Part shown: piece by piece, positions 24,038-42,573 of the stretch | Layout: each line of letters begins with the position of its first letter | Position numbering within the stretch: the stretch's first letter is position 1 | NCBI GenBank assembly: GCA_028286865.1 | Contig: JAQBQU010000019.1 | Span: 6,930 to 70,929 of the forward strand | Direction of reading: 5' to 3' | Length of the DNA: 64,000 bases | DNA from: Candidatus Kaiserbacteria bacterium | GTDB lineage: Bacteria > Patescibacteriota > Minisyncoccia > Phycocordibacterales > UBA2100 | Notes under the pieces: generated by a model | Database searches by the model: none | What the model saw: the letters and a program-made list of their open reading frames with translations, nothing else | What the model was told of the DNA's origin: nothing | Made by a program: the position numbers and the translations under genes

Positions 24038-24108
24038 TGCCGGATCGTCTAATGGTAGGACTCCTCCCTCTGGAGGAGGGTATCTTGGTTCGAATCCAAG
24101 TCCGGCAA
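24038..24108 (+). tRNA. tRNA-Gln (CTG)
   Basis: TGCCGGA-TC-GTCT-AATGGTA-GGAC-T-CCTCC-CTCTGGA-GGAGG-GTAT-CTTGG-TTCGAAT-CCAAG-TCCGGCA-A. Confidence 0.85.
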
Positions 24109-24130
24109 CAAGTGAACGAAGTGAATCTTT

Positions 24131-24244
24131 TGCCGGACGCAGGATTCGAACGGGAAAGGGGTCGGGAAAACACTCTGTTTTCCCGTGGAGGAAGGATTGG
24201 GAAAACCGTGGGTTTCCCAGTGGTTCGCAGTCCAAATCCGGCAA
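24131..24244 (+). other. 114-nt tRNA-Gln-derived structured element (not a foldable tRNA)
   Basis: Begins TGCCGGA and ends TCCGGCAA, the same acceptor strands as tRNA-Gln. The 3' part GGTTCGCAGTCCAAATCCGGCAA is a degenerate copy of the tRNA 3' end. The interior holds GGGAAAAC/GTTTTCCC/GGGAAAAC/GGTTTCCC segments. Confidence 0.6.
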
Positions 24245-24275
24245 CTCGTAGAATTTACATGATATTGTATTCCTT

Positions 24276-24644
24276 ATGGAAGGGATAAAACATGAGAAGC
24301 AGCCGACCCCGCAGCTTGTACTTGAAGCAATTAAGCGAAAATTCTCTACCTCAAGAGAGTTTATGGCAGAAGTCGTGAGCTCTTCAAAAGAGCATCGGGC
24401 TCACTCCGGTAAGCCAGACGTTGCCGGAGTGATTGCTAAACTTGCGTCCATACGTACTAATACATATGGAAGTGAAGGTGAGGGATTATCGCCAAATGAC
24501 GAATCAGTGACGCCAGACAGAGCAAAAGAGATATGGCACGAGGCGACCAATTTTGGCTTCCTGGTTGCAGCTGTTTACCATGGAGAGGCTACGTTTGTAG
24601 GGGAGAATGGTGAACTCTTGAATGCCCCTCGAAACTTTAACTAG
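24276..24644 (+). CDS. Hypothetical protein (122 aa)
   Basis: An ORF only, with no recognisable family. First gene of the repeat-delimited array. Confidence 0.45.
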   Translation: MEGIKHEKQPTPQLVLEAIKRKFSTSREFMAEVVSSSKEHRAHSGKPDVAGVIAKLASIRTNTYGSEGEGLSPNDESVTPDRAKEIWHEATNFGFLVAAVYHGEATFVGENGELLNAPRNFN

Positions 24645-24664
24645 CTGTTTCTTGGTCCAACAAA

Positions 24665-24686
24665 GTTCCAACTTCGTACCAGACCC
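24665..24686 (+). repeat. Array repeat copy 1
   Basis: GTTCCAACTTCGTACCAGACCC, 20 nt after the upstream stop. Preceded by a partial copy, GGTCCAAC. Confidence 0.8.
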
Positions 24687-24736
24687 CGTACAAGGCGTTC
24701 AAATTAGGTTACATAGAGCGGTGATATAATCCGCAT

Positions 24737-25207
24737 ATGGAAAAAGACATAACAGCGCTGCGTGCCACCGCCCTCGACTTCCTAAAGGGCCATAATGCGG
24801 GGGTAATAGCGACCGTCTCGTCAGAAGGCGATCCGCACGCATCCGTTGTTTATTATGTGGCGGACGATTCGTTTAATATTTATTTTCTGACAAAGCTGGG
24901 CAGCAGAAAATATACCGCGATCCAAGCTCATCCCGCAGCAGCTTTTACTGTCGGACGGCAGGATGTTCCACAAACACTTCAAATTGAAGGCGTAGCTGTT
25001 GAGCTTACGAACGAGGATGAGAAGCGCCCGCATGTAGCCGAATTGATGGACACACTGGCTAAAAATAATCCGCTCTATATACCGATCGCAAAAATGGATT
25101 CGGAAGTGGTCATTATGTGGATACAGCCGAAGTGGATCCGCTGGGCCGACTTTTCTGCGCATGGCATTGGCAACGAAGCGATGTTCACCGAAATTCCGGT
25201 TAACTAA
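24737..25207 (+). CDS. Pyridoxamine 5'-phosphate oxidase-family FMN-binding protein
   Basis: Split-barrel family pattern (GVIATVSSEGDPHASVVYYV...IYFLT). TATAAT + 6 nt + ATG. Confidence 0.65.
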   Translation: MEKDITALRATALDFLKGHNAGVIATVSSEGDPHASVVYYVADDSFNIYFLTKLGSRKYTAIQAHPAAAFTVGRQDVPQTLQIEGVAVELTNEDEKRPHVAELMDTLAKNNPLYIPIAKMDSEVVIMWIQPKWIRWADFSAHGIGNEAMFTEIPVN

Positions 25208-25236
25208 TTCAACACACCTCAGTTTGATCAATGGAG

Positions 25237-25258
25237 GTTCCAACTTCGTACGAGACTC
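25237..25258 (+). repeat. Array repeat copy 2
   Basis: GTTCCAACTTCGTACGAGACTC, 29 nt after the upstream stop. Confidence 0.8.
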
Positions 25259-25281
25259 CACAAGCAAGGTAGAATATCTAT

Positions 25282-25878
25282 ATGACCAAGTACGTCTTGA
25301 ATTCCGGAGGGATGCGGAATTATCCTGACAGAGCGAAGAAGTTCTTCGCTGAAGTCGTAAGCGGACTAGGTGAAAAGCCAAGGATCCTTATTTGTTGCTT
25401 TGCACAGCCGCGGGAGGACTGGGAAGAGAAATTTGAGAAAGATAAGAACACTCTTTTTGATCTATTCCCGGAAGGAATACACCCGGTCCTTGAAATGGCT
25501 TTTCCCGCGACATTCACGGAGCAGATAGAGAATTCTGATGTGGTATATATGCACGGCGGCGATGATCACTTGATCCAGTTCTGGCTGAAACAATTCGATA
25601 TTCCCAAGATCTGGGATGGAAAAGTTGTAGCCACCAGTTCGGCAAGTTCGAATGCACTCGCTCGGCATTTCTGGACCTGCGACTGGCGTCAGGCAATGGA
25701 CGGCCTTGGGATCTTACCGATAAAATTTCTAGCACATTACGATTCTGAATACGGAAAGAATGATCCTCGCGGCCCGGTCGACTGGCAGGCGGGTCGGGAA
25801 GAACTGGAGTCATTCGGGGATACGTCGATGCCGGTACACGCTCTGGGAGAAGGGGAATTCATTGTAATACATGTGTGA
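25282..25878 (+). CDS. Peptidase S51 / type-1 glutamine amidotransferase-like protein
   Basis: VYMHGGDDHLI and VVATSSASSNAL resemble the PepE-family GGN and S-A-G regions. TAGAAT + 6 nt + ATG. Confidence 0.45.
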   Translation: MTKYVLNSGGMRNYPDRAKKFFAEVVSGLGEKPRILICCFAQPREDWEEKFEKDKNTLFDLFPEGIHPVLEMAFPATFTEQIENSDVVYMHGGDDHLIQFWLKQFDIPKIWDGKVVATSSASSNALARHFWTCDWRQAMDGLGILPIKFLAHYDSEYGKNDPRGPVDWQAGREELESFGDTSMPVHALGEGEFIVIHV

Positions 25879-26377
25879 TATGGAAGATGTCGTCGTTGTA
25901 AATGAGAAAGACGAAGTGATCGGCATGATGCCTAAGAATGAAGCGCATCAGAATGGGACACTGCATCGGATCGTTGTCGTTTATATCGAAAACGATAGCG
26001 GAGAATTTCTGGTACAGATCCGCGCCGACGGATTGCTCGATCATTCGGCAGCAGGGCACGTCTTCCCGGACGAGTCGTATATGGACGCCGGGAAACGAGA
26101 ACTTTTAGAGGAGCTTGAGATCACTGCTTCAAGCCTCGCGTACGTGGGTCACGGATCTACTCGTAATGAGCGACAGGCGGGCAAGATCAGTTCGCATGAA
26201 TTCGATATCTTCACGTATACGGCAGAACCGGGAAAGTTGCAGGAAGATGAGGTGAAAGACGTATATTGGGCGAAGCCCGAGCACGTGCTGAAAGATATGC
26301 AGATGAACGGCGATAAATATTGCGAGGGGTTCAAGGTGTCGTTGCCTATTTTTCGATCATTTCAGCAGACTCGATAG
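25871..26377 (+). CDS. NUDIX hydrolase
   Basis: Nudix box GHVFPDESYMDAGKRELLEELEI. Overlaps the upstream gene by 8 nt (alternative ATG at 25880). Confidence 0.75.
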   Translation: MCDMEDVVVVNEKDEVIGMMPKNEAHQNGTLHRIVVVYIENDSGEFLVQIRADGLLDHSAAGHVFPDESYMDAGKRELLEELEITASSLAYVGHGSTRNERQAGKISSHEFDIFTYTAEPGKLQEDEVKDVYWAKPEHVLKDMQMNGDKYCEGFKVSLPIFRSFQQTR

Positions 26378-26379
26378 AG

Positions 26380-26401
26380 GTTCCAACTTCGTATCAGGAC
26401 T
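26380..26401 (+). repeat. Array repeat copy 3
   Basis: GTTCCAACTTCGTATCAGGACT, 2 nt after the stop. Its TTCGTA lies 17 nt upstream of the next gene's TACAAT. Confidence 0.8.
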
Positions 26402-26422
26402 CGGTTCGTATACAATGACGTT

Positions 26423-26851
26423 ATGACCGCAATGTTCGGAAGTTACGATGTATCCGATCGGGTGATCGTCGAGAACGATAGCGCTTTCGCTTTTCCCACA
26501 AACATACCGATTGTCTCGGGCCATGTACTCATTGCCCCTAAGCGCATCGTCGAGAAGTACGAAGACCTCTCCGAGGCGGAGCGCAGCGCCATCGAAGACC
26601 TCAGGCAAAAGATAAAGCATGCGCTTACGACAGTGTTTGCCGCGGAAGGATTTAATTACGCATGGAATGAAGCGAGGATCGGCGGGCAGTCAGTGCCGCA
26701 CTTTCATTTACATGTAGTTCCCAGAAAAGAGGGTGACGCCGGTATCTCTAATTATGAGCCTCGGGAGTTTCTATACCGCCCGGGCCCGCGACCGGAGAGC
26801 CCTGATGCAGAGCTCGTGGAAGTCGCGAATTCTGTTCGAGCCGCTCTATAG
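26423..26851 (+). CDS. HIT-family hydrolase
   Basis: Histidine triad VPHFHLHVVPR. TACAAT + 6 nt + ATG. Confidence 0.8.
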   Translation: MTAMFGSYDVSDRVIVENDSAFAFPTNIPIVSGHVLIAPKRIVEKYEDLSEAERSAIEDLRQKIKHALTTVFAAEGFNYAWNEARIGGQSVPHFHLHVVPRKEGDAGISNYEPREFLYRPGPRPESPDAELVEVANSVRAAL

Positions 26852-26937
26852 CGGTTCTCGGGGCGATATAGAAATGAGCTTCCGGCCTCGTCCCTTATCC
26901 CAACAAATGACAGACTGAGTTTTGCTATACTTTCGGG

Positions 26938-27507
26938 ATGAGAAAACTTGTACTCTTCCTGCATCTATCGTTCGACGGATTCAGTGCCGCAGAAGATGGT
27001 GGGCTTGGTTGGATACCCTATAACGAGGCATTTGAGAAATATGCTGAGAAAATAGTTAAAACCGTAGGGACGCCGGTATACGGGCGCATTACGTACGAGA
27101 TGATGAGATCATATTGGCCGACCGTACTAACGAATCCGGCTGCATCTGCGCACGATAGAGAGCATGCGCTATGGCTAGAGGATGTAGAGAAGATCGTCGT
27201 TTCGACAACGCTCCCGGAACAAGAGTGGAACAACACCAGAGTGATACGTGAGGATGTCGTTGAAGAGATCATTAAGCTGAAACAAAAAGAGGGGAAGGAC
27301 CTCGTTATCTTCGGCAGCATAACGCTCGCTACGTCGCTCATGGCGCATGGCCTTATTGACGAGTTTCAATTCACCGTGAGCCCCGTCATGCTGGGGAAAG
27401 GAAAGACCTTTATACGAAGTATAGAGGAGAAGGTCCCGCTCAAACTTTTGTCATCAGAGACACTCAAGAGCGGAATAGTAGGCCTTCACTATGCAGTCGT
27501 CCGCTAA
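26938..27507 (+). CDS. Dihydrofolate reductase-family protein (RibD C-terminal domain)
   Basis: MRKLVLFLHLSFDGF... and DLVIFGSITLATSL...FTVSPVMLGKGKTF, typical of the family. TATACT + 6 nt + ATG. Confidence 0.7.
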   Translation: MRKLVLFLHLSFDGFSAAEDGGLGWIPYNEAFEKYAEKIVKTVGTPVYGRITYEMMRSYWPTVLTNPAASAHDREHALWLEDVEKIVVSTTLPEQEWNNTRVIREDVVEEIIKLKQKEGKDLVIFGSITLATSLMAHGLIDEFQFTVSPVMLGKGKTFIRSIEEKVPLKLLSSETLKSGIVGLHYAVVR

Positions 27508-27508
27508 G

Positions 27509-27537
27509 GTTCTTACGTCAACTCTTCGTACCGATAC
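27509..27537 (+). repeat. Array repeat copy 4 (with internal insertion)
   Basis: GTTCttacgtCAACTcTTCGTACCGATAC, 1 nt after the stop. Its TTCGTA lies 17 nt upstream of TAAGAT. Confidence 0.7.
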
Positions 27538-27559
27538 CCGGGTCTGTTAAGATGCAATT

Positions 27560-27838
27560 ATGGAGAATAAGAATATAAAGGCAGTGGTGATCGGCGAGCC
27601 GTCAGGCGCGAGTATGGATGCGATCATGGAAATATTTCCGCGGCACAAAGCGGTATTGGACAAATATATACAAAATGGCGACGTGATCGGCGTCGGCCCT
27701 TTTTCCGACATGGGAAATATGGCGATATTTAGATCGCGGGCCGCGGCAGAGGCTTTTGCAGCTGAAGATCCTTTTGTTCTAGAGGGGGTGGTGAAATCAT
27801 TCGCTATCCGCGACTGGAATGACAGTTTATTGAAATAA
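27560..27838 (+). CDS. YciI-family protein
   Basis: 92 aa with a YCII-like pattern (GVGPFSD...AEDPFVLEGVV...W). TAAGAT + 6 nt + ATG. Confidence 0.6.
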   Translation: MENKNIKAVVIGEPSGASMDAIMEIFPRHKAVLDKYIQNGDVIGVGPFSDMGNMAIFRSRAAAEAFAAEDPFVLEGVVKSFAIRDWNDSLLK

Positions 27839-27839
27839 A

Positions 27840-27861
27840 GTTCCAACGTCGTACCAGTCCG
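27840..27861 (+). repeat. Array repeat copy 5
   Basis: GTTCCAACGTCGTACCAGTCCG, 1 nt after the stop. No same-strand gene lies downstream; the next gene converges. Confidence 0.8.
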
Positions 27862-27887
27862 CCGATCGGGGAGGGTAGAAAAGATGA

Positions 27888-28337
27888 TTACTTGTTGACT
27901 ATCCTATCGAAATCACCCAAAACAGATCCTCCTTTTCTTACGATATCTTGAGTGCGCTTTATCACAGTATTTCTATCGGTTCGGATCGCCGTGATCCATT
28001 TTCGCGAGGCGCCCGTGCGAGGGTCATGTGCCGCACCCCATTCGGTCAGATCGAGTAATAGCGGGATCAGATCCAGGCCTTTGGCCGTTAGGTGATACTC
28101 CTCCTTTCGCTGATCGATCTTACTGAGCGACTTACTAAGGATCCCTTTTTTCTCCAGGACCGCCAGCCGATGAGCGAGTACGCTCGTTCCGATGCGCTCC
28201 GCCGATCCCAAGAATTCACCGTATGTGTTTTTGCCAAAGTACACGATGTCGCGCACGATAAGTAGCGACCATGGGTCGCCAAACGTCTCCAGAGCAAAAT
28301 TTATTGCACAGTCTGATTTCCTGTCCGTTCGTTTCAT
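27888..28337 (-). CDS. HxlR-family transcriptional regulator
   Basis: CAINFALETFGDPWSLLIVRDI...EYHLTAKG winged-helix pattern. Divergent from a hydrolase gene. Confidence 0.8.
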   Translation of the reverse strand: MKRTDRKSDCAINFALETFGDPWSLLIVRDIVYFGKNTYGEFLGSAERIGTSVLAHRLAVLEKKGILSKSLSKIDQRKEEYHLTAKGLDLIPLLLDLTEWGAAHDPRTGASRKWITAIRTDRNTVIKRTQDIVRKGGSVLGDFDRIVNK

Positions 28338-28421: not shown

Positions 28422-29198
28422 ATGAATACTGTTATTTCCAAAGACGGGACAAAGATCGCTTATGATCGCACCGGAATTGGGCCCGCGCTCATACTGGTCG
28501 GAGGTGCATTACAGCATAGATCCGACCAATTGATGGGCCGATTAGCGCCCCTGCTCGCAAAAGATTTTACCGTTATCAGCTATGACCGCCGTGGTCGGGG
28601 AGACAGTACCGATGGAAGATCATACGCTACTGATCGGGAGATCGAGGATCTTGAATCCGTGATTACAGAAGCCGGCGGATCAGCATACGTTTTTGGCATG
28701 TCATCCGGAGGAATTTTGGCACTTTTGGCAGCTACGAAACTGCCCTACATCACGAAGATCGCGGTATACGAAGCGCCTTTTATATCTGATCAAGAGATAG
28801 GCACAGGTGCGGCAGAATACACGGCGCAGCTTAAGGAGGCTGTAGCAGGTGATGAGCGCAGCAAGGCAGTGAAGCTATTTATGAAGCGAATCGGTATGCC
28901 GGCACCGATACTTTTTATAATGCGCCTTATGCCCATGTGGTCACAATTGAAAAAACTCGCGCCGACACTTGTGTACGACGCGCTCATTGTGGGCGATGGT
29001 AGTGTGCCTCAACAATTCGCATCTATTACCGCCCCGACTCTATTGGTGACCGGGATGTCCGATCCAATGAAGGAAGGTGCTCGGGCAGCTGCCGGCATAC
29101 TTCCCAACGCACAACACAAGGTACTTGAAGGACAAACACACAACGTCAAGCCGGATGTACTTGCGCCCGTGTTGAGAACTTTCTTCAAAGGAAACTAA
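28422..29198 (+). CDS. Alpha/beta hydrolase
   Basis: GMSSGG nucleophile elbow in a 258-aa alpha/beta fold. AAGGAA SD before the ATG, unlike the leaderless neighbours. Confidence 0.75.
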   Translation: MNTVISKDGTKIAYDRTGIGPALILVGGALQHRSDQLMGRLAPLLAKDFTVISYDRRGRGDSTDGRSYATDREIEDLESVITEAGGSAYVFGMSSGGILALLAATKLPYITKIAVYEAPFISDQEIGTGAAEYTAQLKEAVAGDERSKAVKLFMKRIGMPAPILFIMRLMPMWSQLKKLAPTLVYDALIVGDGSVPQQFASITAPTLLVTGMSDPMKEGARAAAGILPNAQHKVLEGQTHNVKPDVLAPVLRTFFKGN

Positions 29199-29273: not shown

Positions 29274-29951
29274 ATGCAGGATGATCACGAACACGATCAC
29301 GACCATAATCATGGTCACCACGACCACGATACTCATTCAGAACACGGCCACAGTCATGGTCTCGTAGACGAATCCATTATCCGATCAAAAGAAGGGGTAA
29401 AAGCGGTAAGTATCAGTCTCGCGGTCCTACTCGCCGCCTCGTTGATACAAGTGGGTATTTTCTCCATAACCAATTCCGTCTCGCTGCTCGCGGACGTGAT
29501 ACACAATTTCGGCGATGCGCTCACGGCGGTGCCGCTCGCGATCGCGTTCTTGCTGCGAAACAAGGTGGCGGAGAAATATTCCGGCTATTTCGTAGTCGGC
29601 GCTATTTTCATTAGTGCCTGTGTCGCCGGTTATACCGCGTTTGATCGGTTGATCCATCCACACATGGTCTCGCACTTGTATGCGCTTATCGCAGCAGGAA
29701 TTATCGGCTTCTTAGGCAATGAAATTGCTGCAGTCATCCGACTTCGGGCAGGGAAGCACCTGAATAGTCCGGCGCTTATCGCCGACGGCGATCACGCGCG
29801 CGTCGATGGTCTCGTGAGTCTTTCGGTCGTTGCAAGCGGAATTCTGGTAGCACTCGGATCGCAGATCGCGGACCCTGTCATCGGCCTGCTCATGACCGCT
29901 CTTATTCTCAGGATCACGTGGCAGTCATACGAGACCATTCGAAACGTCTAA
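29274..29951 (+). CDS. Cation diffusion facilitator transporter (short; no obvious cytoplasmic C-terminal domain)
   Basis: His/Asp-rich N-terminus (DHEHDHDHNHGHHDHD) and a TM core with the HNFGDALTA and ADGDHARVD motifs. Confidence 0.7.
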   Translation: MQDDHEHDHDHNHGHHDHDTHSEHGHSHGLVDESIIRSKEGVKAVSISLAVLLAASLIQVGIFSITNSVSLLADVIHNFGDALTAVPLAIAFLLRNKVAEKYSGYFVVGAIFISACVAGYTAFDRLIHPHMVSHLYALIAAGIIGFLGNEIAAVIRLRAGKHLNSPALIADGDHARVDGLVSLSVVASGILVALGSQIADPVIGLLMTALILRITWQSYETIRNV

Positions 29952-29957
29952 CATCTT

Positions 29958-30425
29958 TTACTGAATATAAGTGGCAAGTTTTTCGAGCTGCTGCGTAAAG
30001 CCCGCTTCCATGCCCTGCACGGCCATTCCTGCTTTCGGACCAGTTTTGAGAATAGCGGCTTTAATTTCGATCTTTGTCTTGCCGTCTACCTCGCGCAACA
30101 CGATCTCAGTCGTCTGATCGATGAGTGTTTCTTCTTTCATGCCCTCGGTCCATGCTTGGGCCGTATAGGAAAGCTTCGCATTCGGTTCGACTTCGGTGAA
30201 TTCTGCGAGCATTGGCCACTTCGTGCCTTTGTACGGTCCCATCGCTTCGCCCGCTTCCATCACGATGTAAAATTTTCCGCCGACTCGCAGATCTACTTCA
30301 CATTCGGGAATGCTGACGTTGTTCGGCCCCCACCATTGCATCAGCTCTTTCGGATCGGTCCATGCCTTCCATACTTTCTCGATCGGGGCGTCCACTGTTC
30401 TCTCGATCGTAATTGCTTTTTCCAT
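29958..30425 (-). CDS. SRPBCC / AHSA1-domain protein
   Basis: ITIERTVDAPIEKVWKAWTDPKELMQWWGP is typical of the family. Downstream of arsR-type regulator on the same strand. Confidence 0.75.
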   Translation of the reverse strand: MEKAITIERTVDAPIEKVWKAWTDPKELMQWWGPNNVSIPECEVDLRVGGKFYIVMEAGEAMGPYKGTKWPMLAEFTEVEPNAKLSYTAQAWTEGMKEETLIDQTTEIVLREVDGKTKIEIKAAILKTGPKAGMAVQGMEAGFTQQLEKLATYIQ

Positions 30426-30428
30426 ACA

Positions 30429-30755
30429 TTATTTATTAGGTTTTAAAAACTCTTCTAATCGGTCTATTTTTTCCTCCCACAAGATTCGGTACTGCGCTAA
30501 GTACGTATCTGCCCTGCCCAGTCCGGCAGGGGAGAGTTCGACCTTTTGCTCGCGTCCGCTCCGGCGTTTTCGCACGAGCCGTGCCCGCTCGAGCACTTGG
30601 AGGTGTTTGGAAACGGCCGCAAAGGTAAGGTCATAATGCTGCGCGAGTTCACCCACGGTGTGCTCGCGCGGCCGCAAACGGCGCAATATATCGCGCCGCG
30701 TCGGATCGGCGAGCGACTGGAATATCACATCAAGATCCTTGCTATATTCAACCAT
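30429..30755 (-). CDS. ArsR/SmtB-family transcriptional regulator
   Basis: FQSLADPTRRDILRRL...VSKHLQVLERARLV. I chose the internal Met at 30755 because a consensus promoter lies just upstream. Confidence 0.75.
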   Translation of the reverse strand: MVEYSKDLDVIFQSLADPTRRDILRRLRPREHTVGELAQHYDLTFAAVSKHLQVLERARLVRKRRSGREQKVELSPAGLGRADTYLAQYRILWEEKIDRLEEFLKPNK

Positions 30756-30762
30756 ATAGTTG

Positions 30763-30791
30763 AATATATACCGCGCCGCATGAGGTGTCAA
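30763..30791 (-). promoter_or_regulatory. Promoter of the arsR-SRPBCC operon
   Basis: On the minus strand: TTGACA, 17-nt spacer, TATATT, then 7 nt to the ATG. Confidence 0.55.
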
Positions 30792-30878
30792 TGCGGACAC
30801 TCGCTGCTTTTGTCGGACGTCGACAGCTTTCGCAAAACGATATGAATGTTTCTGCAGTACATATGCTAGCCTAAATAC

Positions 30879-31454
30879 ATGTCGGATACTCGAACAGATC
30901 AAGAACTCGTGGTAGCGGCGCTGAAAGACCGCCACGCGTTCATTGAGATCGTAGAGCGATACCAAGCTGCGCTCAGTCGCTATATAGCGCGTCTCGGCAT
31001 CACTGATGCTGATACCGTGAAAGACCTCCTGCAGGAATCATTTATCAAGGCCTATATAAACCTCAATGATTACAACCGATCATTTTCGCTCAGCGGCTGG
31101 CTGTATCGCATCGTTCACAATGAAGTGATCGATCATTTCCGAAAGCAGAAGCACCGCCCTCATTCTGTGGAGCGGGAAGATGATCTCGTGCTCTTCGACA
31201 AAATTGTTGACGAATTTGATATAGAGAAAGAACTCGACGGGCGCAAACGTCAGTACGTCATGCGAGAGGCACTCGACACCCTCGAGCAGCACTATCGCGA
31301 CGTCATCGTGCTCCGGTATTTTGAAGAGAAATCGTATGATGAGATCTCGGATATTCTGAGGATCCCGAGCGGGACCGTGGCGACCTACCTCAGTCGGGCA
31401 AAGTCGAAGCTCAAAGCGGTGTTAATGCGATTATATGATCAGCGTATACTGTAA
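30879..31454 (+). CDS. ECF-type RNA polymerase sigma-70 factor
   Basis: Region 2 (LLQESFIKAY...WLYRIVHNEVIDHFRK) and region 4 (SYDEISDILRIPSGTVATYLSRAK). Confidence 0.85.
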   Translation: MSDTRTDQELVVAALKDRHAFIEIVERYQAALSRYIARLGITDADTVKDLLQESFIKAYINLNDYNRSFSLSGWLYRIVHNEVIDHFRKQKHRPHSVEREDDLVLFDKIVDEFDIEKELDGRKRQYVMREALDTLEQHYRDVIVLRYFEEKSYDEISDILRIPSGTVATYLSRAKSKLKAVLMRLYDQRIL

Positions 31455-31457
31455 ATT

Positions 31458-31931
31458 ATGAACACATTATCTGAACAGATCGCCAAAGAACTCGAGTCAC
31501 GGGGCGCATCGCCGAAGCCGCGTTGGCATTTCCTTGTAGCGCGGGGGACCTTTTGGCTGCTTGCGGTCACATCGGTGTTGATCGGCGGCATCGCGTTTGC
31601 CGTGGCATCATTCGTCTTCTTTGACAACGACGGAGCGAGCATGAGCGTGCTCGAACGATCATCCATATACGACATTGCACAGAGCATTCCATTTGTATGG
31701 CTCGCGATATTCGGACTCTTCACGGCGAGTACGTACGCCGGCTTTCGTAACACACGCTCAGGATACAAATATGCGACATCACTCGTGATCATAGTCGCAA
31801 TACTCGCGAGTATTGCGCTGGGATTACTACTCAACACGCTCGACTTCGGACAAAATGTCCACCGCTATTTGCTCGAGCACACAAGCTTTTATGATCCGCT
31901 CATTCACTCACGTGAAGACCTGCCTGATTAG
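31458..31931 (+). CDS. Membrane protein, candidate anti-sigma factor
   Basis: Starts 4 nt after the sigma gene and has about 4 TM segments. The function is inferred from position only. Confidence 0.35.
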   Translation: MNTLSEQIAKELESRGASPKPRWHFLVARGTFWLLAVTSVLIGGIAFAVASFVFFDNDGASMSVLERSSIYDIAQSIPFVWLAIFGLFTASTYAGFRNTRSGYKYATSLVIIVAILASIALGLLLNTLDFGQNVHRYLLEHTSFYDPLIHSREDLPD

Positions 31932-32008
31932 GGCCTGAAAGGAAATCCCGCCGGGTAGCGTACTACTAATATGGGCGAAAGCCCGCAATTAGCAGTTAGT
32001 ATTACACT

Positions 32009-32326
32009 ATGGTTTTATCGAGAACATATATTGCGATCGTGGTCGCATTTGCAGTGGGAGTCATCGGGGCGGTAGGATTCTCTGTTCATGCGCAAAGCAT
32101 TCCAGCCACTACAACTACCGATCAGGTAGCGGCAGTGAGCACTACAGCGACCCAGGTCTCTGATGGTGATGGGGAACAGCCGGATGCTACGGAAGCATCC
32201 GCCCAGGATGCTTCCGGTACCGATCTTGAGACCGCAGATGACGGTCAGACCGGTTCTGCCGACGCGACCGATGCCCCTGACGCCCCGGACACAGGCTCGT
32301 CCGGCTCAGAGGTACAGGGGGATTAG
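32009..32326 (+). CDS. Membrane-anchored acidic low-complexity protein
   Basis: N-terminal TM/signal segment followed by a T/D/A/G-rich tail (DGDGEQPDATEASAQDASGTDLETADDG). Confidence 0.4.
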   Translation: MVLSRTYIAIVVAFAVGVIGAVGFSVHAQSIPATTTTDQVAAVSTTATQVSDGDGEQPDATEASAQDASGTDLETADDGQTGSADATDAPDAPDTGSSGSEVQGD

Positions 32327-32343
32327 TCGAAAGACTGCACGAA

Positions 32344-32375
32344 ATGTACCAGGGCCTGACCCCGCCCTGGTACAT
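32344..32375 (+). terminator. Hairpin terminator
   Basis: ATGTACCAGGGC-ctgacccc-GCCCTGGTACAT, a perfect 12-bp stem followed by TTCTT. Confidence 0.6.
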
Positions 32376-32404
32376 TCTTGTGTTATATTTTTATATATTG
32401 CACT

Positions 32405-33175
32405 ATGAATACAACTCTCAGGCAAATGCTCAATAAGGTCCCGGAAATCACTCTTTATTTCTGGATCATCAAAATACTCTGTACGACCGTCGGCGAGACA
32501 GCGGCGGATTTCTTGAACACTGCACTCGGTTTCGGACTCACCAACACGACCTATGTGATGGGAGCGATCCTCATTGCGGTGCTCATCGCGCAATTCAGAT
32601 CCTCGAAATATGTGCCCTCGGTCTATTGGCTCGCCGTGGTGCTCCTGAGCGTTGTCGGTACGCTCATCACCGACAATCTCACCGATAATTTCGGCGTCTC
32701 ACTCGTCACGACCACCGTCATATTTGCGATCGCACTCGCGGCTATATTCGCGGGATGGTATGCGAGCGAAAAAACGCTCTCTATCCACAGCATCGTCACG
32801 ACGCGTCGCGAAACGTTCTACTGGCTCGCAATTCTTTTCACGTTTGCCTTGGGCACGGCCGCAGGAGATCTGAGTGCCGAGCGTTTCGCGCTCGGGTATC
32901 TGACATCGGCCCTTATCTTCGGCGGCTTGATCGCCATAATCTATGCAGCGTATCGATTTCGTCTCAATGCGGTCTTGGCATTCTGGCTCGCGTACATTCT
33001 CACGCGCCCCCTCGGCGCATCGATCGGCGACTATCTCTCGCAATCTCCCGATGACGGCGGCCTCGGATTGGGGACGACCACTACGAGCTTTATATTCCTC
33101 GCCGCAATTCTGCTGCTCGTGATATATCTCACGGTAACAAAAAGGGATCGTATACAAACGCAGATAACTACATAA
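32405..33175 (+). CDS. Polytopic membrane protein (COG4705-like)
   Basis: Two repeats of the TxGETAADF / GTAAGDL motif in TM context. The track start at 32378 precedes the likely -10 box. Confidence 0.5.
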   Translation: MNTTLRQMLNKVPEITLYFWIIKILCTTVGETAADFLNTALGFGLTNTTYVMGAILIAVLIAQFRSSKYVPSVYWLAVVLLSVVGTLITDNLTDNFGVSLVTTTVIFAIALAAIFAGWYASEKTLSIHSIVTTRRETFYWLAILFTFALGTAAGDLSAERFALGYLTSALIFGGLIAIIYAAYRFRLNAVLAFWLAYILTRPLGASIGDYLSQSPDDGGLGLGTTTTSFIFLAAILLLVIYLTVTKRDRIQTQITT

Positions 33176-33226
33176 GTTCAATTTTCACCTGATTCTCAAT
33201 CAAATATAGTCTGGTAGAATTCTCGC

Positions 33227-33574
33227 ATGTCAGGATTCCGCACGCCCGAGAGCCAGGCTGAATACGAGCGGGTATTGCCGGAGATACTCAGTCATGGATG
33301 TCCGTTGTGCACGAAGCAGGCCGTAGAATCGTTCGTACATTGGAAGATCGTCACCGATGACTTTCCGTACAACAAGATCGCGAAATTGCATCATGTGCTC
33401 ACGCCGCTGCGACATGTGTTAGAGCGAGAGCTGAACGGCGAAGAACGTCAGGAATATCACGATATTAAGGAGGAGCAGCTAGAAGGGAAATATGAATACG
33501 TAATTGAGCCGATCGGCCAGCACCGTTCGGTCCCGGGACATTTTCACACGCACCTGATCGTCTCGCTCGATTAA
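33227..33574 (+). CDS. Small HIT-like protein
   Basis: C-terminal GHFHTHLI histidine-triad-like motif. TAGAAT + 6 nt + ATG. Confidence 0.4.
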   Translation: MSGFRTPESQAEYERVLPEILSHGCPLCTKQAVESFVHWKIVTDDFPYNKIAKLHHVLTPLRHVLERELNGEERQEYHDIKEEQLEGKYEYVIEPIGQHRSVPGHFHTHLIVSLD

Positions 33575-33575
33575 C

Positions 33576-33998
33576 ATGCACATTCTTTTTGTGTGTCAGG
33601 GCAATGTAAATCGCAGTCAGATGGCTGCCACTATAATGCGAGCTTTGCGACCGGATATCGAAGTGGTGTCTGCGGGTGTCATGGCAGAGAACGCGGGAGA
33701 TATGGTATCTGATGTATCCGAGAAGGGTATAGAGGTGATGAAAGAGCTCGGCTATGATATGTCGCACAATAAAATATCGCAGCTTGAACCGCAGATGGTT
33801 GATGCAGCCGAGAGGGTAATACTCATGGGCGAACTTCCTGAATCCGCCGCGCCGGATTATTTGAAGAATTCTCCGAAGCTCGAAACGTGGGACGTGCCTG
33901 ATCCCGGATACGGACACATCACCCATGCAGCTGCGCGCGATATGATCCTGGAAAAAGTGAAAGACCTCGCGGAGCGGGTCGGGCACGAGCATAAATAA
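33576..33998 (+). CDS. Low-molecular-weight phosphotyrosine phosphatase / arsenate reductase family
   Basis: N-terminal ILFVCQGNVNRS is the CX5R(S) P-loop. Confidence 0.8.
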   Translation: MHILFVCQGNVNRSQMAATIMRALRPDIEVVSAGVMAENAGDMVSDVSEKGIEVMKELGYDMSHNKISQLEPQMVDAAERVILMGELPESAAPDYLKNSPKLETWDVPDPGYGHITHAAARDMILEKVKDLAERVGHEHK

Positions 33999-34001
33999 AA
34001 A

Positions 34002-34025
34002 ATCCGCCGCATTGCTGCGGCGGAT
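34002..34025. terminator. Bidirectional terminator
   Basis: ATCCGCCGCA-ttgc-TGCGGCGGAT, preceded by an A run, between convergent genes. Confidence 0.75.
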
Positions 34026-34047
34026 CATATTCTCACAGTTGGGCAGT

Positions 34048-34785
34048 TCAGGCCGGTTCGCGTTTATTGATGATCTTCACGACCGACGGGTCGCCGTTGA
34101 TCGGGATCATTTTTACGACCAATGCCACACGGTTGTCGCGATCGAGCAGATCCCAATACTGCTCGGCGATCTCGGTGATCCCGCCACGCAGCGGGATGAG
34201 AAGTGGCTGTCCGTAGTAGGGCGGAGTCGGTGTGCCGTTCTGCTCGTACGTGCGAATATAGTGACCATATCCGGCCGGGATCAAAGGATAGGTCCACAGC
34301 GCATGTTCGGGGACTTTATAACCACGTTCCGAGGCTCGGATAATTCCGATCTGAAACAGAGGGTTCTTGCCGTTCGTAAAGACGGCGGCGATCCGCGCCG
34401 TAAGATTCGTATCCGGCTCATACGTTTCCTTCTGCAGCGCGGTGTAGAAGTTGCCGCTGCTGCCGATCATTTCCCTGACGATCGCTTTCGTGTGCCCGCC
34501 GTTGGACACAATGTAGTGTCCGTCTGCTTCAGCCATGGCGTCGTAGAAGAGAAGCGGGTTCTTGTCTTCTACCGGATCGATCGCATCGGTTTCAACGAGA
34601 CCGCTGCCGCTGTCTTTCAGGTAACGGTTCTTGTTGGGCTCGCTGCGGACCGTCACAATAAGCATCTCGACGCAGTTCCTGCCCGTGTCATCCAGGCCGA
34701 TCGCAAGCACTCGCCCTGGATACTGATTGTTCGCGAAGTTATCGAGGTTGAGTGCTGCAATATCTTTGTCATACTCTGCCGACAT
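34048..34785 (-). CDS. IMP cyclohydrolase-like protein (PurO family)
   Basis: YPGRVLAIGLDDTGRNCVEMLIVTVRSEPNKNRYL resembles the archaeal-type PurO N-terminus. AGGAG SD lies 7 nt before Met 34785. The 285-aa plus-strand ORF here is an antisense shadow. Confidence 0.55.
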   Translation of the reverse strand: MSAEYDKDIAALNLDNFANNQYPGRVLAIGLDDTGRNCVEMLIVTVRSEPNKNRYLKDSGSGLVETDAIDPVEDKNPLLFYDAMAEADGHYIVSNGGHTKAIVREMIGSSGNFYTALQKETYEPDTNLTARIAAVFTNGKNPLFQIGIIRASERGYKVPEHALWTYPLIPAGYGHYIRTYEQNGTPTPPYYGQPLLIPLRGGITEIAEQYWDLLDRDNRVALVVKMIPINGDPSVVKIINKREPA

Positions 34786-34881
34786 GGTGCCACTCCTGGT
34801 TGGCTGTTTACCCTGCCGGGAGGGTATCACGACGGCCCTTCCGGACAAAGCTCACACCATACCAAGTGATACAATTGATGC

Positions 34882-35268
34882 ATGCTTCAACACATCTCAG
34901 CGTTCAGCGGGTTTTCGGTCAAAGATATCGGGCAGGCAAAGGATTTTTATGAAAATGTGCTCGGCCTCGCGATTGAACAGTCGTCCGAAGGGCTGCAGGT
35001 ACAGTTCCAGGACGGTAAAGAAGTGTTTCTCTACCCAAAACAGGATCATGCGCCCGCGACATACACCGTGCTCAACTTCGTCGTCGAAGATATAAATACG
35101 GCCGTCGACCAACTCGCGCAAAAGGGTGTGACGCTTGAGAATTACGATTCGGGCCCGATGAAAGCCGACGAGAAAGGAATTTACCGCGGCAAAGCCGCCG
35201 GCTACGGGCCCGATATCGCCTGGTTCAAGGACCCTTCGGGCAACATTCTTTCGCTCATCCAGAACTGA
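34882..35268 (+). CDS. VOC (glyoxalase/bleomycin-resistance) family protein
   Basis: 128 aa (FSVKDIGQAKDFYENVLGL...WFKDPSGNILSL). TACAAT + 6 nt + ATG. Confidence 0.7.
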   Translation: MLQHISAFSGFSVKDIGQAKDFYENVLGLAIEQSSEGLQVQFQDGKEVFLYPKQDHAPATYTVLNFVVEDINTAVDQLAQKGVTLENYDSGPMKADEKGIYRGKAAGYGPDIAWFKDPSGNILSLIQN

Positions 35269-35280
35269 TCATTTGATGAT

Positions 35281-35667
35281 ATGCCACACGAGGATCTTTC
35301 GCAGTCCGTACCGGCGACTCAGTCTCCGGTCTGCCCGACATGCCACCAAGGCATCAAGCCCGAATATTATTTCTGCCCGAACTGCGGGACGATGCTTCAC
35401 CAGGCACCGCTTTCCACCGAACCCCTCGCGCAGTTCTGGATATATGCATTCAGTATCATTCTGCCGATGATCGCGTTCCTCTTTGTCACGCGGTGGCCGG
35501 GCATGAAGTATTACCGCTCGGAAGACCCGAAAGCCCGGCTCGTGGGGCAGGTCGCGTGGGTGTTGCTCGTCCTCTCGACGATCGGTACGTCGTGGTACAT
35601 CTACAATTGGACACAGAACGCGGTCAATACTGCCGTGAACAATATCAATACCGACATGAGCTTCTAG
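35281..35667 (+). CDS. Zinc-ribbon membrane protein
   Basis: CPTCHQG...CPNCG ribbon followed by two TM segments. Confidence 0.5.
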   Translation: MPHEDLSQSVPATQSPVCPTCHQGIKPEYYFCPNCGTMLHQAPLSTEPLAQFWIYAFSIILPMIAFLFVTRWPGMKYYRSEDPKARLVGQVAWVLLVLSTIGTSWYIYNWTQNAVNTAVNNINTDMSF

Positions 35668-35707: not shown

Positions 35708-36343
35708 ATGAAAATAACCAAACTCGGACATTGCTGCTTACTCATCGAGGACGGAGGAAAGACGATATTGACCGATCCGGGAAATTATTCGGATACGCAA
35801 AATACTATCAAGGGCATCGATATCGTCGTGATCACGCATGAGCACGGTGACCATTTGCACGTCGATTCACTCAAGGCCGTACTCGGCAACAACCTCGATG
35901 CGACGGTCGTGTGCAATTCTGCGGTAGGGCGTATTCTCGACAAGGAAGGTATCAAGTATCAGGTGATCGAAGGCATAGGTACCGCTGTCGTGAAAGATGT
36001 CGCCATCGAAGCATGCGACGGCAGGCATGAAGAAATATTCGAAGAGATAGGCCAAGTACAGAACACCGGATACATGCTCATGGATCGGCTCTATTATCCG
36101 GGCGATTCGTTCACGGCGCCGCAGAAACAGATAGAGATATTGGCGCTTCCGGTCGGCGGTCCGTGGTGCAAATTGCCCGATGCGCTCCATTTCATGCTGA
36201 GGGTCATGCCGAAGAAAGTATTTCCGGTCCATGACGGGATGTTGAAATCCGCCGGTATGCTGCCCTTGCTCAAAGATGCCGTCTTCGGCAAGCACAATAT
36301 CGAGCTGGTCATGATGGGCCCCGGAGATTCAAATGATTTTTAG
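35708..36343 (+). CDS. MBL-fold metallo-hydrolase
   Basis: ITHEHGDHLH (HxHxDH). TACACT + 6 nt + ATG. Confidence 0.75.
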   Translation: MKITKLGHCCLLIEDGGKTILTDPGNYSDTQNTIKGIDIVVITHEHGDHLHVDSLKAVLGNNLDATVVCNSAVGRILDKEGIKYQVIEGIGTAVVKDVAIEACDGRHEEIFEEIGQVQNTGYMLMDRLYYPGDSFTAPQKQIEILALPVGGPWCKLPDALHFMLRVMPKKVFPVHDGMLKSAGMLPLLKDAVFGKHNIELVMMGPGDSNDF

Positions 36344-36413
36344 CCCCGTTATTCTCTCCACAGGGGAATGTCTTGTTCGTCTAAAGAGAATCCACGAGTG
36401 ATATACTGCCGGC

Positions 36414-36836
36414 ATGAATATAGAGCGATACGCGCGACCGCAGACGGTGGTCAAGTACATAGCGCTCTACCTCACCGTCCTTTTTATCGGTATCGTAACG
36501 ATCGAGCGCTTCCCGGGCGTTCTCGTTGATACTGCCGTGCCACATGAATGGCTCATGTTCGGACTCTTCAAGATCTCGCTGATCGATGATATTACCCATG
36601 GTCTTTCGGGCCTTTTCGGCCTGCTCGCGATCCTTTCAGGATATCGCTGGACCGTAAAGTATTTGATGGTTATCGGAGGCTACTATGCGCTCGATGCGCT
36701 TTTCACTGTAGGAAACGGATTTGCCATCGGTCAGGACTTCATTAGCAACATGCTGCTCAATGGCCCGCATATCGGCATCACCGTGCTCGTTCTGATCGCG
36801 CTCTACTCATCCGTTCGACGGATAGAACTCAAATAA
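36414..36836 (+). CDS. Hypothetical 4-TM membrane protein
   Basis: Hydrophobic 140 aa. TATACT + 6 nt + ATG. The overlapping minus-strand 72-aa ORF is rejected. Confidence 0.5.
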   Translation: MNIERYARPQTVVKYIALYLTVLFIGIVTIERFPGVLVDTAVPHEWLMFGLFKISLIDDITHGLSGLFGLLAILSGYRWTVKYLMVIGGYYALDALFTVGNGFAIGQDFISNMLLNGPHIGITVLVLIALYSSVRRIELK

Positions 36837-36843
36837 TTCGCAT

Positions 36844-39327: not shown

Positions 39328-39385
39328 TCACTGCCGTTCGATCACGGCGTTTCGCATATATGGCTTGAACGTGTATAACTCACTC

Positions 39386-40450: not shown

Positions 40451-41212
40451 ATGGAAAAGAAACCGGATCGCGACACATCGTGGGGCAAAGTATCCCAATG
40501 GTACGACACCTATCTCGCGGGAGATGACAGCTACCAGATGCAGGTCATATTGCCGAATCTGGTGAGAGTGCTCGGTCTAAAAAAGGAGGAGCGGGTGCTC
40601 GACCTTGCCTGCGGCCAGGGATTCTTCACACGCGAATTCGCGAAGACGGGCGCGGCGGTGCAGGGAACGGATATCGCGCCGGAGCTTATCAAAGAGGCGA
40701 AGAAGCACGGCGGGGATATTCGCTACGATATCGCATCCGCGGAAGACCTTTCATTCGCACGCGACGCGTCGTTCGATACGGTCGTCTGCGTGCTCGCGCT
40801 TCAGAATATGGAGAACCTCGGGAAGGTCTGTAAGGAGGTCGAACGCGTGCTCGTGCCCGGCGGCAGGTTCGTGCTGGTCCTCAATCACCCGGCATTCCGA
40901 GTGCTGAAGCGCTCGAAGTGGGGATGGGATGAAGGGGGAATTCAATTCCGTCGCGTCGACGGATATCTCTCGGCGGCGAAAGTATTCATCGACATGCACC
41001 CGGGCAAAGGCGGCGAGAAAATACAGACCATCTCATATCATCGGTCGCTCCAGGATTTCTTCAAGTCGCTCGCGGGGGCCTCGCTCGCGGTGACGCGCCT
41101 AGAGGAATGGATATCACATCGGGTGAGCGAAAAAGGTCCCAAGCAAAAAGCGGAAGATACGGCACGCAAAGAGATCCCGCTCTTTATGATGCTCGAGGCC
41201 CGCAAGAGGTAG
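40451..41212 (+). CDS. Class I SAM-dependent methyltransferase
   Basis: VLDLACGQGFFT (motif I) and the downstream motifs. Confidence 0.8.
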   Translation: MEKKPDRDTSWGKVSQWYDTYLAGDDSYQMQVILPNLVRVLGLKKEERVLDLACGQGFFTREFAKTGAAVQGTDIAPELIKEAKKHGGDIRYDIASAEDLSFARDASFDTVVCVLALQNMENLGKVCKEVERVLVPGGRFVLVLNHPAFRVLKRSKWGWDEGGIQFRRVDGYLSAAKVFIDMHPGKGGEKIQTISYHRSLQDFFKSLAGASLAVTRLEEWISHRVSEKGPKQKAEDTARKEIPLFMMLEARKR

Positions 41213-41227
41213 GCGTATACTGTGCAC

Positions 41228-41812
41228 ATGAGACGCTCCCGTCCGATACGTATTGTTTCCTTCATAATTCTGATCATCCTCGTCGGTACCTATTTCTTCG
41301 TTACGCGCCGTGAAGAACAAACGGTAGTGACCGGCACCGCGATCGCCGCTACCGCTACTCCATACGTCGAAGGCAGCTTTGTGAAGCCGGCGGACTCGGT
41401 ACTGCGCGCGACGCTCACCCCGGAAATGTACGATGTCACCCAACGAAACGGCACTGAAGCCCCGTTCCATAATGAATACTGGGACAATCACGAAGAAGGG
41501 ATCTACGTCGATATCGTCTCCGGGGAGCCGCTCTTTTCTTCCAAGGATAAATATGATTCCGGCACCGGCTGGCCTTCTTTCACCAAGCCGCTGGTCGCCG
41601 CAAATATAAAGACCGTCGCCGATAATTCGCTCAGCGACGAGCGCACCGAAGTGCGCTCGGTACATGCTGATTCGCATCTTGGTCACGTATTCAACGACGG
41701 TCCCGCGCCGCTCGGGCTTCGCTATTGTATGAATTCCGCCGCAATGCGGTTCGTTCCGAAGAACGACCTTGTCGCACAAGGATACGGAGAATTTCTTTCC
41801 CTGTTCCAATAA
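41228..41812 (+). CDS. msrB: Peptide-methionine (R)-S-oxide reductase MsrB with an N-terminal membrane anchor
   Basis: [17 protein letters not shown] and RYCMNS motifs. N-terminal [24 protein letters not shown] + 6 nt + ATG 41228. Confidence 0.85.
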
Positions 41813-42301: not shown

Positions 42302-42541
42302 ATGTACTTCGTGTATCTGCTCGAGTGCGCCGACAAAAGTATCTATACCGGTATCGCCACCGACGTGGAGCGACGGTTCAAGGAGCATCAAAAGGGAACA
42401 GCCGCCGCCTATACGCGTTCGCGGAAGGCAGTTCGCGTCTTGTATACGGAGAAGGCGATCGATCGCAGTACCGCTCTCAAGCGCGAGGCTGCTATCAAGA
42501 AATTGACCCGTACGCAAAAGCTCGAACTGGCGGCCTCATGA
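42302..42541 (+). CDS. GIY-YIG domain protein (UPF0213-like)
   Basis: MYFVYLLECADKSIYTGIATDVERRFKEH. TACACT + 6 nt + ATG 42302 (the track starts at GTG 42278). Confidence 0.75.
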   Translation: MYFVYLLECADKSIYTGIATDVERRFKEHQKGTAAAYTRSRKAVRVLYTEKAIDRSTALKREAAIKKLTRTQKLELAAS

Positions 42542-42573
42542 ATTCTTAATCGATCGCACGATAGCATGCATCG

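Follow-up and report, generated by a model that had tools for sequence, protein, structure and literature searches.

How did six small gene units, separated by copies of one short repeat, come to stand in a row behind a glutamine transfer RNA (tRNA-Gln) gene in the genome of a Candidatus Kaiserbacteria bacterium? The locus lies in a stretch of 64,000 nucleotides (nt) from contig JAQBQU010000019.1, which at its whole length we call the window and within which all positions are counted. The organism belongs to the Patescibacteria, or Candidate Phyla Radiation (CPR), a group that makes up a large share of bacterial diversity, has genomes of about 1 Mb with few recognisable mobile elements and acquires its accessory genes in ways that are poorly understood. 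The first-pass annotation of the window, made from its letters, had described the row as cassette-like without being a canonical integron, a description that holds and that applies far more generally than could be seen in the window, since arrays of this kind are phylum-wide. Among the readings proposed there, the one of recombination sites of an undescribed cassette system is now the best-supported explanation: We consider it somewhat probable (about 55%) that the repeats are the attachment sites of mobile single-gene cassettes inserting at the 3' end of tRNA-Gln.

Within the window the repeat is confined to the array. An 18-mer, GTTCCAACKTCGTAYSAG, occurs with 0–1 mismatch in four of its copies (1, 2, 3, and 5 in table 1), all on the plus strand, against an expectation of 0.02 matches in dinucleotide shuffles, none of 100 of which reached four; a profile search of the whole window found no copy beyond the array, the other 60 kb being motif-free. 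The remaining copy, at 27509 (GTTCttacgtCAACTcTTCGTACC), was read by eye, and with its insertions of 6 nt and 1 nt it escapes the ungapped and profile scans. The copies follow stop codons at 20, 29, 2, 1, and 1 nt, in order, just as they had been placed previously. A sixth trace, behind the HIT gene, is split and degenerate (GGTTC at 26853 and CCAACaaatgaCAGAC at 26903), and it is plausible that this was once a copy of the motif, because the HIT ortholog of another Kaiserbacteria genome (L036; the L numbers are our handles for the sequences compared) has an intact motif at exactly that position. A Pfam scan returned the same gene families that had been read from the translations: PNPOx, S51, NUDIX, HIT, RibD_C, and YCII, with no match for the first unit. 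The PNPOx protein and that of PGA_cap have identical counterparts in a Candidatus Kaiserbacteria genome assembled from a metagenome.

Is this repeat private to the genome in question? An exact scan with a degenerate form of the 18-mer, applied to one genome per species across 185,579 species, returned 75 stretches, about 30 of which hold scattered, chance-type matches within genes of unrelated phyla. By profile score 44 of the 75 are CPR-type loci (47 before three non-CPR loci were set aside), and their matches are intergenic and come from Saccharibacteria, Kaiser-, Adler-, Nomura-, and Zambryskibacteria, as well as other Paceibacterota; the 18-mer is found mainly in Patescibacteria, in many of their classes. 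The CPR consensus spans about 29 nt, (A/G)GTTCCAAC-N-TCGTACCAGAC-NNN-CCAGC, with GGTTCCAAC-N-TCGTACCAGAC as a non-palindromic arm and NNN-CCAGC, behind it, as a short core. Secondary copies that were found by the profile, and had not been chosen by the 18-mer, carry the same 29-nt consensus. Hence, the repeat is a conserved element of the radiation, with an intergenic consensus shared across classes, and not a peculiarity of this genome.

The anatomy of the arrays is equally regular. There are 19 loci with multiple copies, from 2 to 8 each, and in all 19 the copies (57 altogether) share one orientation within their locus, at a median spacing of 558 nt. One or two small open reading frames (ORFs) lie between copies and may face either direction. 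In 16 of 45 cases the motif sits at −3 to +5 nt from the stop codon of an upstream ORF of its own strand, and when the ORF beside it is divergent its start is about 55–65 nt away. In four arrays (L038, L013, L069, and L070) every gene is antisense to the motif, which then lies beyond their terminators, an arrangement that argues against any RNA or promoter function tied to the direction of the genes. The 150 ORFs neighbouring the motif at the 44 loci (180–450 amino acids) match Pfam families including RibD_C, S51, serine hydrolases, and histidine phosphatases, and the RibD_C, HIT, NUDIX, S51, and PNPOx families of the window recur in other tRNA-Gln arrays. Homologues of PNPOx were also found in six other contexts with no adjoining motif; this family therefore moves or resides independently of the cassette system too.

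The arrays are anchored to one tRNA gene. A tRNA-Gln (CTG or TTG) is found inside the 8-kb stretch at 18 of the 47 motif loci, always upstream of the motif and co-oriented with it (18/18), while another tRNA is present at just one of the 47 and the chance expectation is estimated at approximately 1–2% per locus. The gene neighbourhood of this tRNA-Gln (tRNA-Thr, prfB, ftsE, ftsX, pyrG, and others) is conserved in Kaiserbacteria, other Paceibacteria, and Saccharibacteria and, consequently, the arrays occupy an orthologous site. The ending of many of these tRNA-Gln genes is ...CCCAGC or ...GGCAGC (cf. ...CCAGC of the motif), GGTTC is common to the tRNA 3' end and the motif start, and in L021 there are 12 nt, CGGGCAGCTCGT, in which the ends of tRNA and motif agree. 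The previous suggestion that the repeats are tRNA-derived att copies thus stands only in part: The GGTTC start, the CCAGC end seen outside the window, and the start of the arrays at tRNA-Gln in all 18 loci where one is in view speak for it, but the central 20 of the motif's 29 nt (GGTTCCAAC-N-TCGTACCAGAC) are foreign to tRNA-Gln.

The boundaries of what is exchanged lie at the motif. For example, a 1-kb unit of two genes has 76% nucleotide identity between a Saccharibacteria metagenome-assembled genome (MAG) and a Zambryskibacteria MAG, and a 600-nt unit has 78% identity between a Nomurabacteria MAG and a MAG of another Paceibacterota, values to be compared with about 64–70% for housekeeping genes from class to class. 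In both cases the last base of the motif is exactly where similarity ends, and in L016 it begins 3 nt past the preceding motif. In L036, motif copies stand on either side of the ortholog of the window's HIT cassette (67% amino acid identity), and RibD_C cassettes are present also in the tRNA-Gln arrays of L012 and L072. The junctions themselves can be compared between tRNA and motif: The 30 nt that follow the CAGC of tRNA-Gln in L067 are identical, in register, at 24 of 30 positions to those following the CAGC of a motif in L027, and the same comparison of L049 with L014 gives 21 of 30, against a background with its mode at 8 of 30 over approximately 26,000 comparisons. The end of the tRNA is therefore equivalent as a junction to that of the motif, a result predicted by insertion through recombination at that point and not by a regulatory role of the motif. 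Within a single contig (JADGRH010000002.1), the 30 nt after the motifs of L014 (at 294) and L018 (at 7233) are identical at 29 of 30 positions, which suggests either duplication of a cassette or a 5' module repeated among the cassettes of one array.

How might such an array be built? On the simplest account, a trans-acting, sequence-specific recombinase or nuclease would attach a free cassette, circular or linear and composed of promoter, ORF, and motif, to the chromosome, the point of joining being at or close to the terminal CAGC of the tRNA-Gln gene or of a motif already present. The tRNA would be left intact, older cassettes would be displaced distally, and all sites would come to be co-oriented with the tRNA. 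In lambda terms, the motif would combine a P-arm, the invariant 20 nt, with a core resembling the tRNA end, while the promoter region of the cassette would constitute the P' side. We place the crossover at or near CAGC because cassette-specific sequence starts in the same register behind the tRNA as behind the motif; another point within the motif is possible too, for the conservation of the motif would hide it.

The closest relatives of the window (L208–L210; 72% amino acid identity in PGA_cap and 72–79% nucleotide identity) are collinear with it from prfB to tRNA-Gln. They retain the order prfB-ftsEX-pyrG-PGA_cap-tRNA-Gln, but 3 nt past the tRNA their set of genes begins to differ. In blastn comparison with L208, similarity stops at 24112, 3 nt past tRNA-Gln, and returns at 29316 with the cation-efflux gene; the block between measures 5.2 kb in the window, where it comprises an element that we call X (see below), the array, and the HxlR and hydrolase genes, versus 1.8 kb in L208, with three unrelated genes, no X, and no motif. 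In the more distant L198, tRNA-Gln is accompanied by X, a GIY-YIG gene, and further genes; there is no motif here either, and PNPOx lies inverted at the far end. Gene content in relatives thus varies from the 3' end of tRNA-Gln onward, and the motif is missing from the rest of the window; neither of the two findings that the first-pass annotation had named as speaking against cassettes was made. The replaced block is motif-less in the two relatives, however, and the right breakpoint with L208 lies off the repeat. The sequences that follow copy 1 in the window and tRNA-Gln in L208 have a 12-nt match, AAGGCGTTCAAA, which is possibly due to chance and was not used.

Several results weigh against the attachment-site reading. 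The variable genes that L198 and L208 carry at the same tRNA-Gln without any motif, and the off-motif breakpoint at 29316, imply that other mechanisms also remodel the site. No recombinase domain was detected in the 40 window ORFs scanned, as had been noted before for intI and other recombinases, and none appears among the 25 commonest Pfam families of the 150 ORFs at the motif loci. Neither an empty site nor a circular junction was found. The promoters in fixed register directly 3' of the motif are compatible also with regulation, and the match of the motif core with the tRNA-Gln end of its own genome reaches only a suggestive level in a permutation test (p = 0.06). Finally, the copies in the window keep the conserved arm and have lost the 3' CCAGC end, and copies 1–3 are spanned without a break by a Logan contig from the source sample; from these two observations the window array is probably old and fixed, with copies that look like fossils.

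Among the alternatives, one that is unlikely holds that the motif is a portable patch of homology, by which Patescibacteria, presumably reliant on DNA uptake, would swap cassettes through RecA-dependent or homology-facilitated recombination between its 27–29-bp copies or at tRNA-Gln. Its length is near the minimum for efficient homologous recombination, no recombinase is linked to any array, and L208 has replaced the whole block from tRNA-Gln to the cation-efflux gene in the manner of replacement-type flexible islands. What homology does not explain is why an asymmetric sequence should be near-identical in classes with about 35% divergence in the nucleotides of their housekeeping genes, why it should be tied to tRNA-Gln only, and how tRNA end and motif end, with approximately 5 nt in common, should be equivalent in exact register. 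Improbable, too, is the possibility that the repeats are passive attR scars, namely diverged partial copies of tRNA-Gln left by larger integrase islands that decayed to single genes, with no mobility of cassettes. A defence island with a large serine recombinase does lie behind the same tRNA-Gln in L211, duplications of tRNA 3' ends do exist (X in the window and a tRNA-Leu case in L205, both described below), and the copies in the window are degenerate. True att scars, however, copy the 3' end of the resident tRNA, whereas 20 of the 29 nt of the motif are absent from tRNA-Gln and yet hardly vary from class to class, implying that the sequence itself is under selection; moreover, the units are uniformly of single-gene size and no integrase fragments were seen among the commonest Pfam families of the 150 ORFs neighbouring the motif.

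The position of the motif next to promoters requires separate consideration. In forward arrays a −35-like TTGAC starts 1–8 nt past the motif in conserved register, in reversed arrays the TTGACA of the divergent gene lies 7–9 nt from its other end, TTCGTA is 17 nt from the −10 box in window copies 3 and 4, and the gene families share one functional flavour. These features would suit a protein-binding regulatory site (operator, UP-like, or activator) serving small stress or house-cleaning genes, with the look of an array arising from gene compaction, an interpretation that we consider rather unlikely. Orientation tracks the tRNA and not the gene, in 19 of 19 loci with ORFs facing both ways; the end of the motif that faces the promoter in forward cassettes is not the one that does so in reversed cassettes; no gene follows copy 5 or other terminal copies; canonical sigma-70 promoters are not enriched in the region, nor are terminators; and the linkage with tRNA-Gln would be left unexplained together with the equivalence of the junctions. 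In the narrower form of a shared promoter module, this is the weakest of the readings in the first-pass annotation, given also that the distance from TTCGTA to the −10 varies from 16 to 23 nt across loci. Highly improbable is a function at the RNA level, such as a signal in the 3' untranslated region or a tRNA-like tag for tRNA-processing enzymes that would separate cistrons. Every window copy does lie in the 3' untranslated region of a plus-strand gene, no intrinsic terminators were found between the window genes, and the motif has tRNA-like ends, but it has no predicted structure and no Rfam match, and the all-antisense arrays place it beyond the terminators of their genes.

In comparison with known systems, the attachment-site reading brings the arrays close to chromosomal (sedentary) integrons, which also have long arrays of mostly single-gene cassettes, co-oriented end sites often abutting a stop codon, small accessory genes (HIT, NUDIX, glyoxalase/VOC-type, toxin–antitoxin pairs, and unknowns), and cassettes common to distant hosts. 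In contrast with integrons, there is no intI adjoining the array; the site is a linear, non-palindromic sequence of about 29 nt instead of a folded attC with R''-L''/L'-R' boxes; a tRNA-Gln gene, and not attI, serves as anchor; cassettes have their own −10 and leaderless-type starts, and many elsewhere are antisense to the array, whereas integron cassettes are promoterless and depend on Pc; and the sequence of the site itself, beyond its structure, is conserved across a radiation of phylum level. The absence of the R''/L''-L'/R' architecture, remarked upon in the first-pass annotation, agrees with the consensus, which contains no internal inverted repeat, and with single-stranded DNA folding of the six intergenic regions on either strand (z from −1.2 to +2.0), which gave no structure and no attC-like fold. 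A canonical integron was consequently rejected.

Tycheposons build the islands of Prochlorococcus by tRNA-targeted tandem accretion (bioRxiv 10.1101/2020.12.28.424599). Such islands, like the arrays, are seeded by a tRNA gene beside which new DNA enters while older DNA is moved distally, have repeats related to the tRNA 3' end between units, and occur in streamlined hosts with few classical mobile elements. They differ in being multi-gene, with their own tyrosine or serine recombinase and true partial copies of the tRNA, whereas here the units are single genes without recombinase, the repeat has only its two ends in common with the tRNA, and one tRNA species (Gln) is used phylum-wide. Pdif modules and integrative mobile elements exploiting Xer (IMEX) are likewise small gene modules with borders of about 28 bp and no recombinase of their own, dependent on host enzymes; their dif-like sites, however, are 11-6-11 partial palindromes in alternating orientation, while the consensus found here, GGTTCCAACNTCGTACCAGACNNNCCAGC, has no symmetry of this kind, never departs from direct orientation, and is linked to a tRNA gene. 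The system has, in sum, the logic of integrons and of tRNA-seeded islands but fails the defining features of each. We found no description of the motif, or of tRNA-Gln cassette arrays of Patescibacteria, in the full-text literature searched, literal sequence strings and a recent paper on gene exchange within the group included.

Other candidates were tried and discarded. A phage or episome attP was rejected, since the three matches to the motif in IMG/VR have no 3' extension and are chance-like; a DNA uptake sequence, because the copies are confined to arrays; and repetitive extragenic palindromic (REP) elements, bacterial interspersed mosaic elements (BIME), or miniature inverted-repeat transposable elements (MITE), because there is no palindrome, the orientation is strictly single, and the other 60 kb of the window are copy-free. 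The maximum of GC skew near 29 kb might recall a replication terminus with dif, but gene orientation does not flip there and the peak is due to the skew of the cassettes themselves. The reverse complement of the repeat (TGGTACG-N4-TTGGAA; GGAAC) was compared by eye with sigma-54 and extracytoplasmic function (ECF) sigma promoters, and neither the spacing nor the −12 element fits. To our knowledge the repeat bears no convincing resemblance to fragments of ribosomal RNA, transfer-messenger RNA, signal recognition particle RNA, or RNase P RNA. With Rfam 15, only tRNAs reached the gathering score in the window, the repeats and X having no match at E up to 10.

The features of the array are collected in table 1. 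Five of its six units begin as they had been read, with a −10-like hexamer, 6 nt, and ATG; the first ORF, previously held to have no such start, has a weak TATTGT 7 nt upstream of its ATG. Array genes in general (window 24723–27562 and many motif loci) start 6–7 nt past a −10-like hexamer and without Shine-Dalgarno spacing, which implies leaderless mRNAs, and the same leaderless-type architecture is present in cassettes of other CPR classes. The region had been described as more AT-rich than its flanks. This is correct with respect to the upstream side, GC being 0.48–0.52 at 24–28 kb versus 0.55–0.58, but the downstream flank remains low (0.50–0.53) up to about 40 kb, and therefore the AT-rich zone is wider than the array.

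Table 1. Array behind tRNA-Gln and its immediate surroundings, in window coordinates
Feature	Position	Strand	Remarks
tRNA-Gln (CTG)	24038..24109	+	Array anchor; ARAGORN and Rfam
X element	24130..24245	+	Between tRNA-Gln and first cassette
Cassette 1 ORF, 122 amino acids	24276..24644	+	No family match in Pfam scan
Motif copy 1 (GTTCCAACTTCGTACCAGACCCCGTAC)	24665..24690	+	CCAGC end lost
Cassette 2 ORF, PNPOx-like	24737..25207	+	TATAAT + 6 nt + ATG, leaderless-type start
Motif copy 2 (GTTCCAACTTCGTACGAGACTCCACAA)	25237..25263	+
Cassette 3, two overlapping ORFs	25282..26377	+	S51-like ORF 25282–25878, NUDIX ORF 25871–26377
Motif copy 3 (GTTCCAACTTCGTATCAGGACTCGGTT)	26380..26406	+
Cassette 4 ORF, HIT family	26423..26851	+
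Degenerate split motif	26853..26918	+	GGTTC, about 45 nt, then CCAACaaatgaCAGAC
Cassette 5 ORF, RibD_C (DHFR-like)	26938..27507	+
Motif copy 4 (GGTTCttacgtCAACTcTTCGTACCGATACC)	27508..27540	+	With insertions; read by eye
Cassette 6 ORF, YCII	27560..27838	+
Motif copy 5 (GTTCCAACGTCGTACCAGTCCGCCGATCG)	27840..27868	+	Last copy; 3' end of convergent HxlR gene comes next
HxlR regulator	27888..28337	−	Not bounded by motif; part of variable block, missing in L208
Alpha/beta hydrolase	28422..29198	+	Not bounded by motif; part of variable block, missing in L208

The variability of the site is not restricted to cassettes. Behind the same tRNA-Gln, L211 (8171–18103; 67% amino acid identity in PGA_cap) carries an OLD-family TOPRIM/AAA_15 gene with a UvrD helicase, a Gabija-like pair, as well as a large serine recombinase and the methylase of a type I restriction-modification system, thus forming a defence island at the orthologous position. 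Inserts of several kinds thus collect at tRNA-Gln, a general hot spot, with motif-bounded cassettes as one of them. Four more blocks of the window are missing in the collinear L208, none of them bounded by the motif: 29942–35359 (AHSA1, ArsR, ECF sigma, DUF347, and glyoxalase), 36318–39369 (a 140-amino acid ORF and an FAD-binding protein of 827 amino acids), 41207–41810 (MsrB), and 42529–42983 (cupin). The whole of 24–43 kb is a low-GC flexible zone.

Element X, which the first-pass annotation had not set apart as a feature of its own, is the only place in the window with a true partial copy of a tRNA. Over about 115 nt it comprises the tRNA-Gln 3' end in inverted orientation, a core of two hairpins, and then a direct copy of the tRNA 3' end, TCCAAATCCGGCAAC; the inverted and direct copies of the neighbouring tRNA's 3' end (a 15-mer repeat in the window) form its closing helix. 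The core, GGGGTC-hairpin-GTGGAGGAAGGATT-GGGAAAACCGTGGGTTTCCC-AG, is strongly conserved and its hairpin 1 covaries. A 23-mer of the core has 116 exact matches in metagenome contigs and no match in IMG/VR; X is present also in L049 (6985–7085), in L198 (about 9420–9510, minus strand), and in L081–L196. Of 99 distinct copies, 58 lie less than 160 nt downstream of a tRNA, representing 16 isotypes, with flanks that match the respective tRNA and with housekeeping genes, and no integrase, as neighbours. It looks like an undescribed structured RNA or a miniature element that targets tRNA ends. Its surroundings (653 kb around the 99 copies) contain no motif and, therefore, X and the motif are separate phenomena that meet at tRNA-Gln.

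Two Logan contigs (L001 and L002, SRR13312974) break at X, one ending at 24109, the last base of tRNA-Gln, and the other beginning at 24237, the base directly after the final mismatch of the tRNA 3' end with its copy in X. An allele without X, in which tRNA-Gln is joined directly to TCGTAGAAT..., would break the de Bruijn graph exactly there; that such an allele coexists in the sample is what we infer from the contig ends only. A further case of accessory genes behind a duplicated tRNA end is found in L205 (6725–7000), where tRNA-Leu is followed by an element of approximately 190 nt, with a core unlike that of X, ending in a 19-nt repeat of the tRNA-Leu 3' end, GAGTCCCACCCCCGGCACA, and directly thereafter by a leaderless-type promoter and a PNPOx gene.

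A small protein recurs in the same neighbourhood. UPF0213, a GIY-YIG-only protein of about 80 amino acids, is encoded near tRNA-Gln in many CPR genomes, often as the first gene beside the tRNA (window 42302–42538, plus strand; L198 9057–9332; L208 12980–13222; also L032, L075, L049, L054, L067, L021, L027, L045, and L109). Its genes number 9–10 per 376 kb of motif loci, compared with 3 per 653 kb of control CPR loci, and for its relatives of known structure, 1ywl and 1zg2, the only annotation is that of a hypothetical UPF0213 protein. The distance from tRNA-Gln is 0.2 kb in L198, 6.4 kb in L208, and 18 kb downstream in the window, as if the gene had been pushed away by inserts at the tRNA end.

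In evolutionary terms, we put forward tentatively, and with less confidence than the attachment-site reading itself, that Patescibacteria possess an ancient, phylum-wide cassette system without a linked integrase, in which the 3' end of tRNA-Gln is the insertion point, the linear cassette site of 29 bp its partner, and the acting enzyme a protein not yet recognised as a recombinase, candidates being a host Xer-like protein or the UPF0213 GIY-YIG nuclease. Should this enzyme prove new, there would be a substantial chance that the system is more than a variant of the integron or tRNA-island kinds. If the proposal is true, the motif would offer a defined DNA substrate for finding the enzyme, the 3' end of tRNA-Gln a natural site at which genetic tools could be inserted in those few members of the group that can be cultivated, and the phylum-wide cassette border at tRNA-Gln a sequence handle for cataloguing the flexible gene pool in any metagenome. 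It would represent a second and structurally distinct answer to the problem that integrons solve and, for these ultra-small, DNA-scavenging bacteria, a main route of gene gain.

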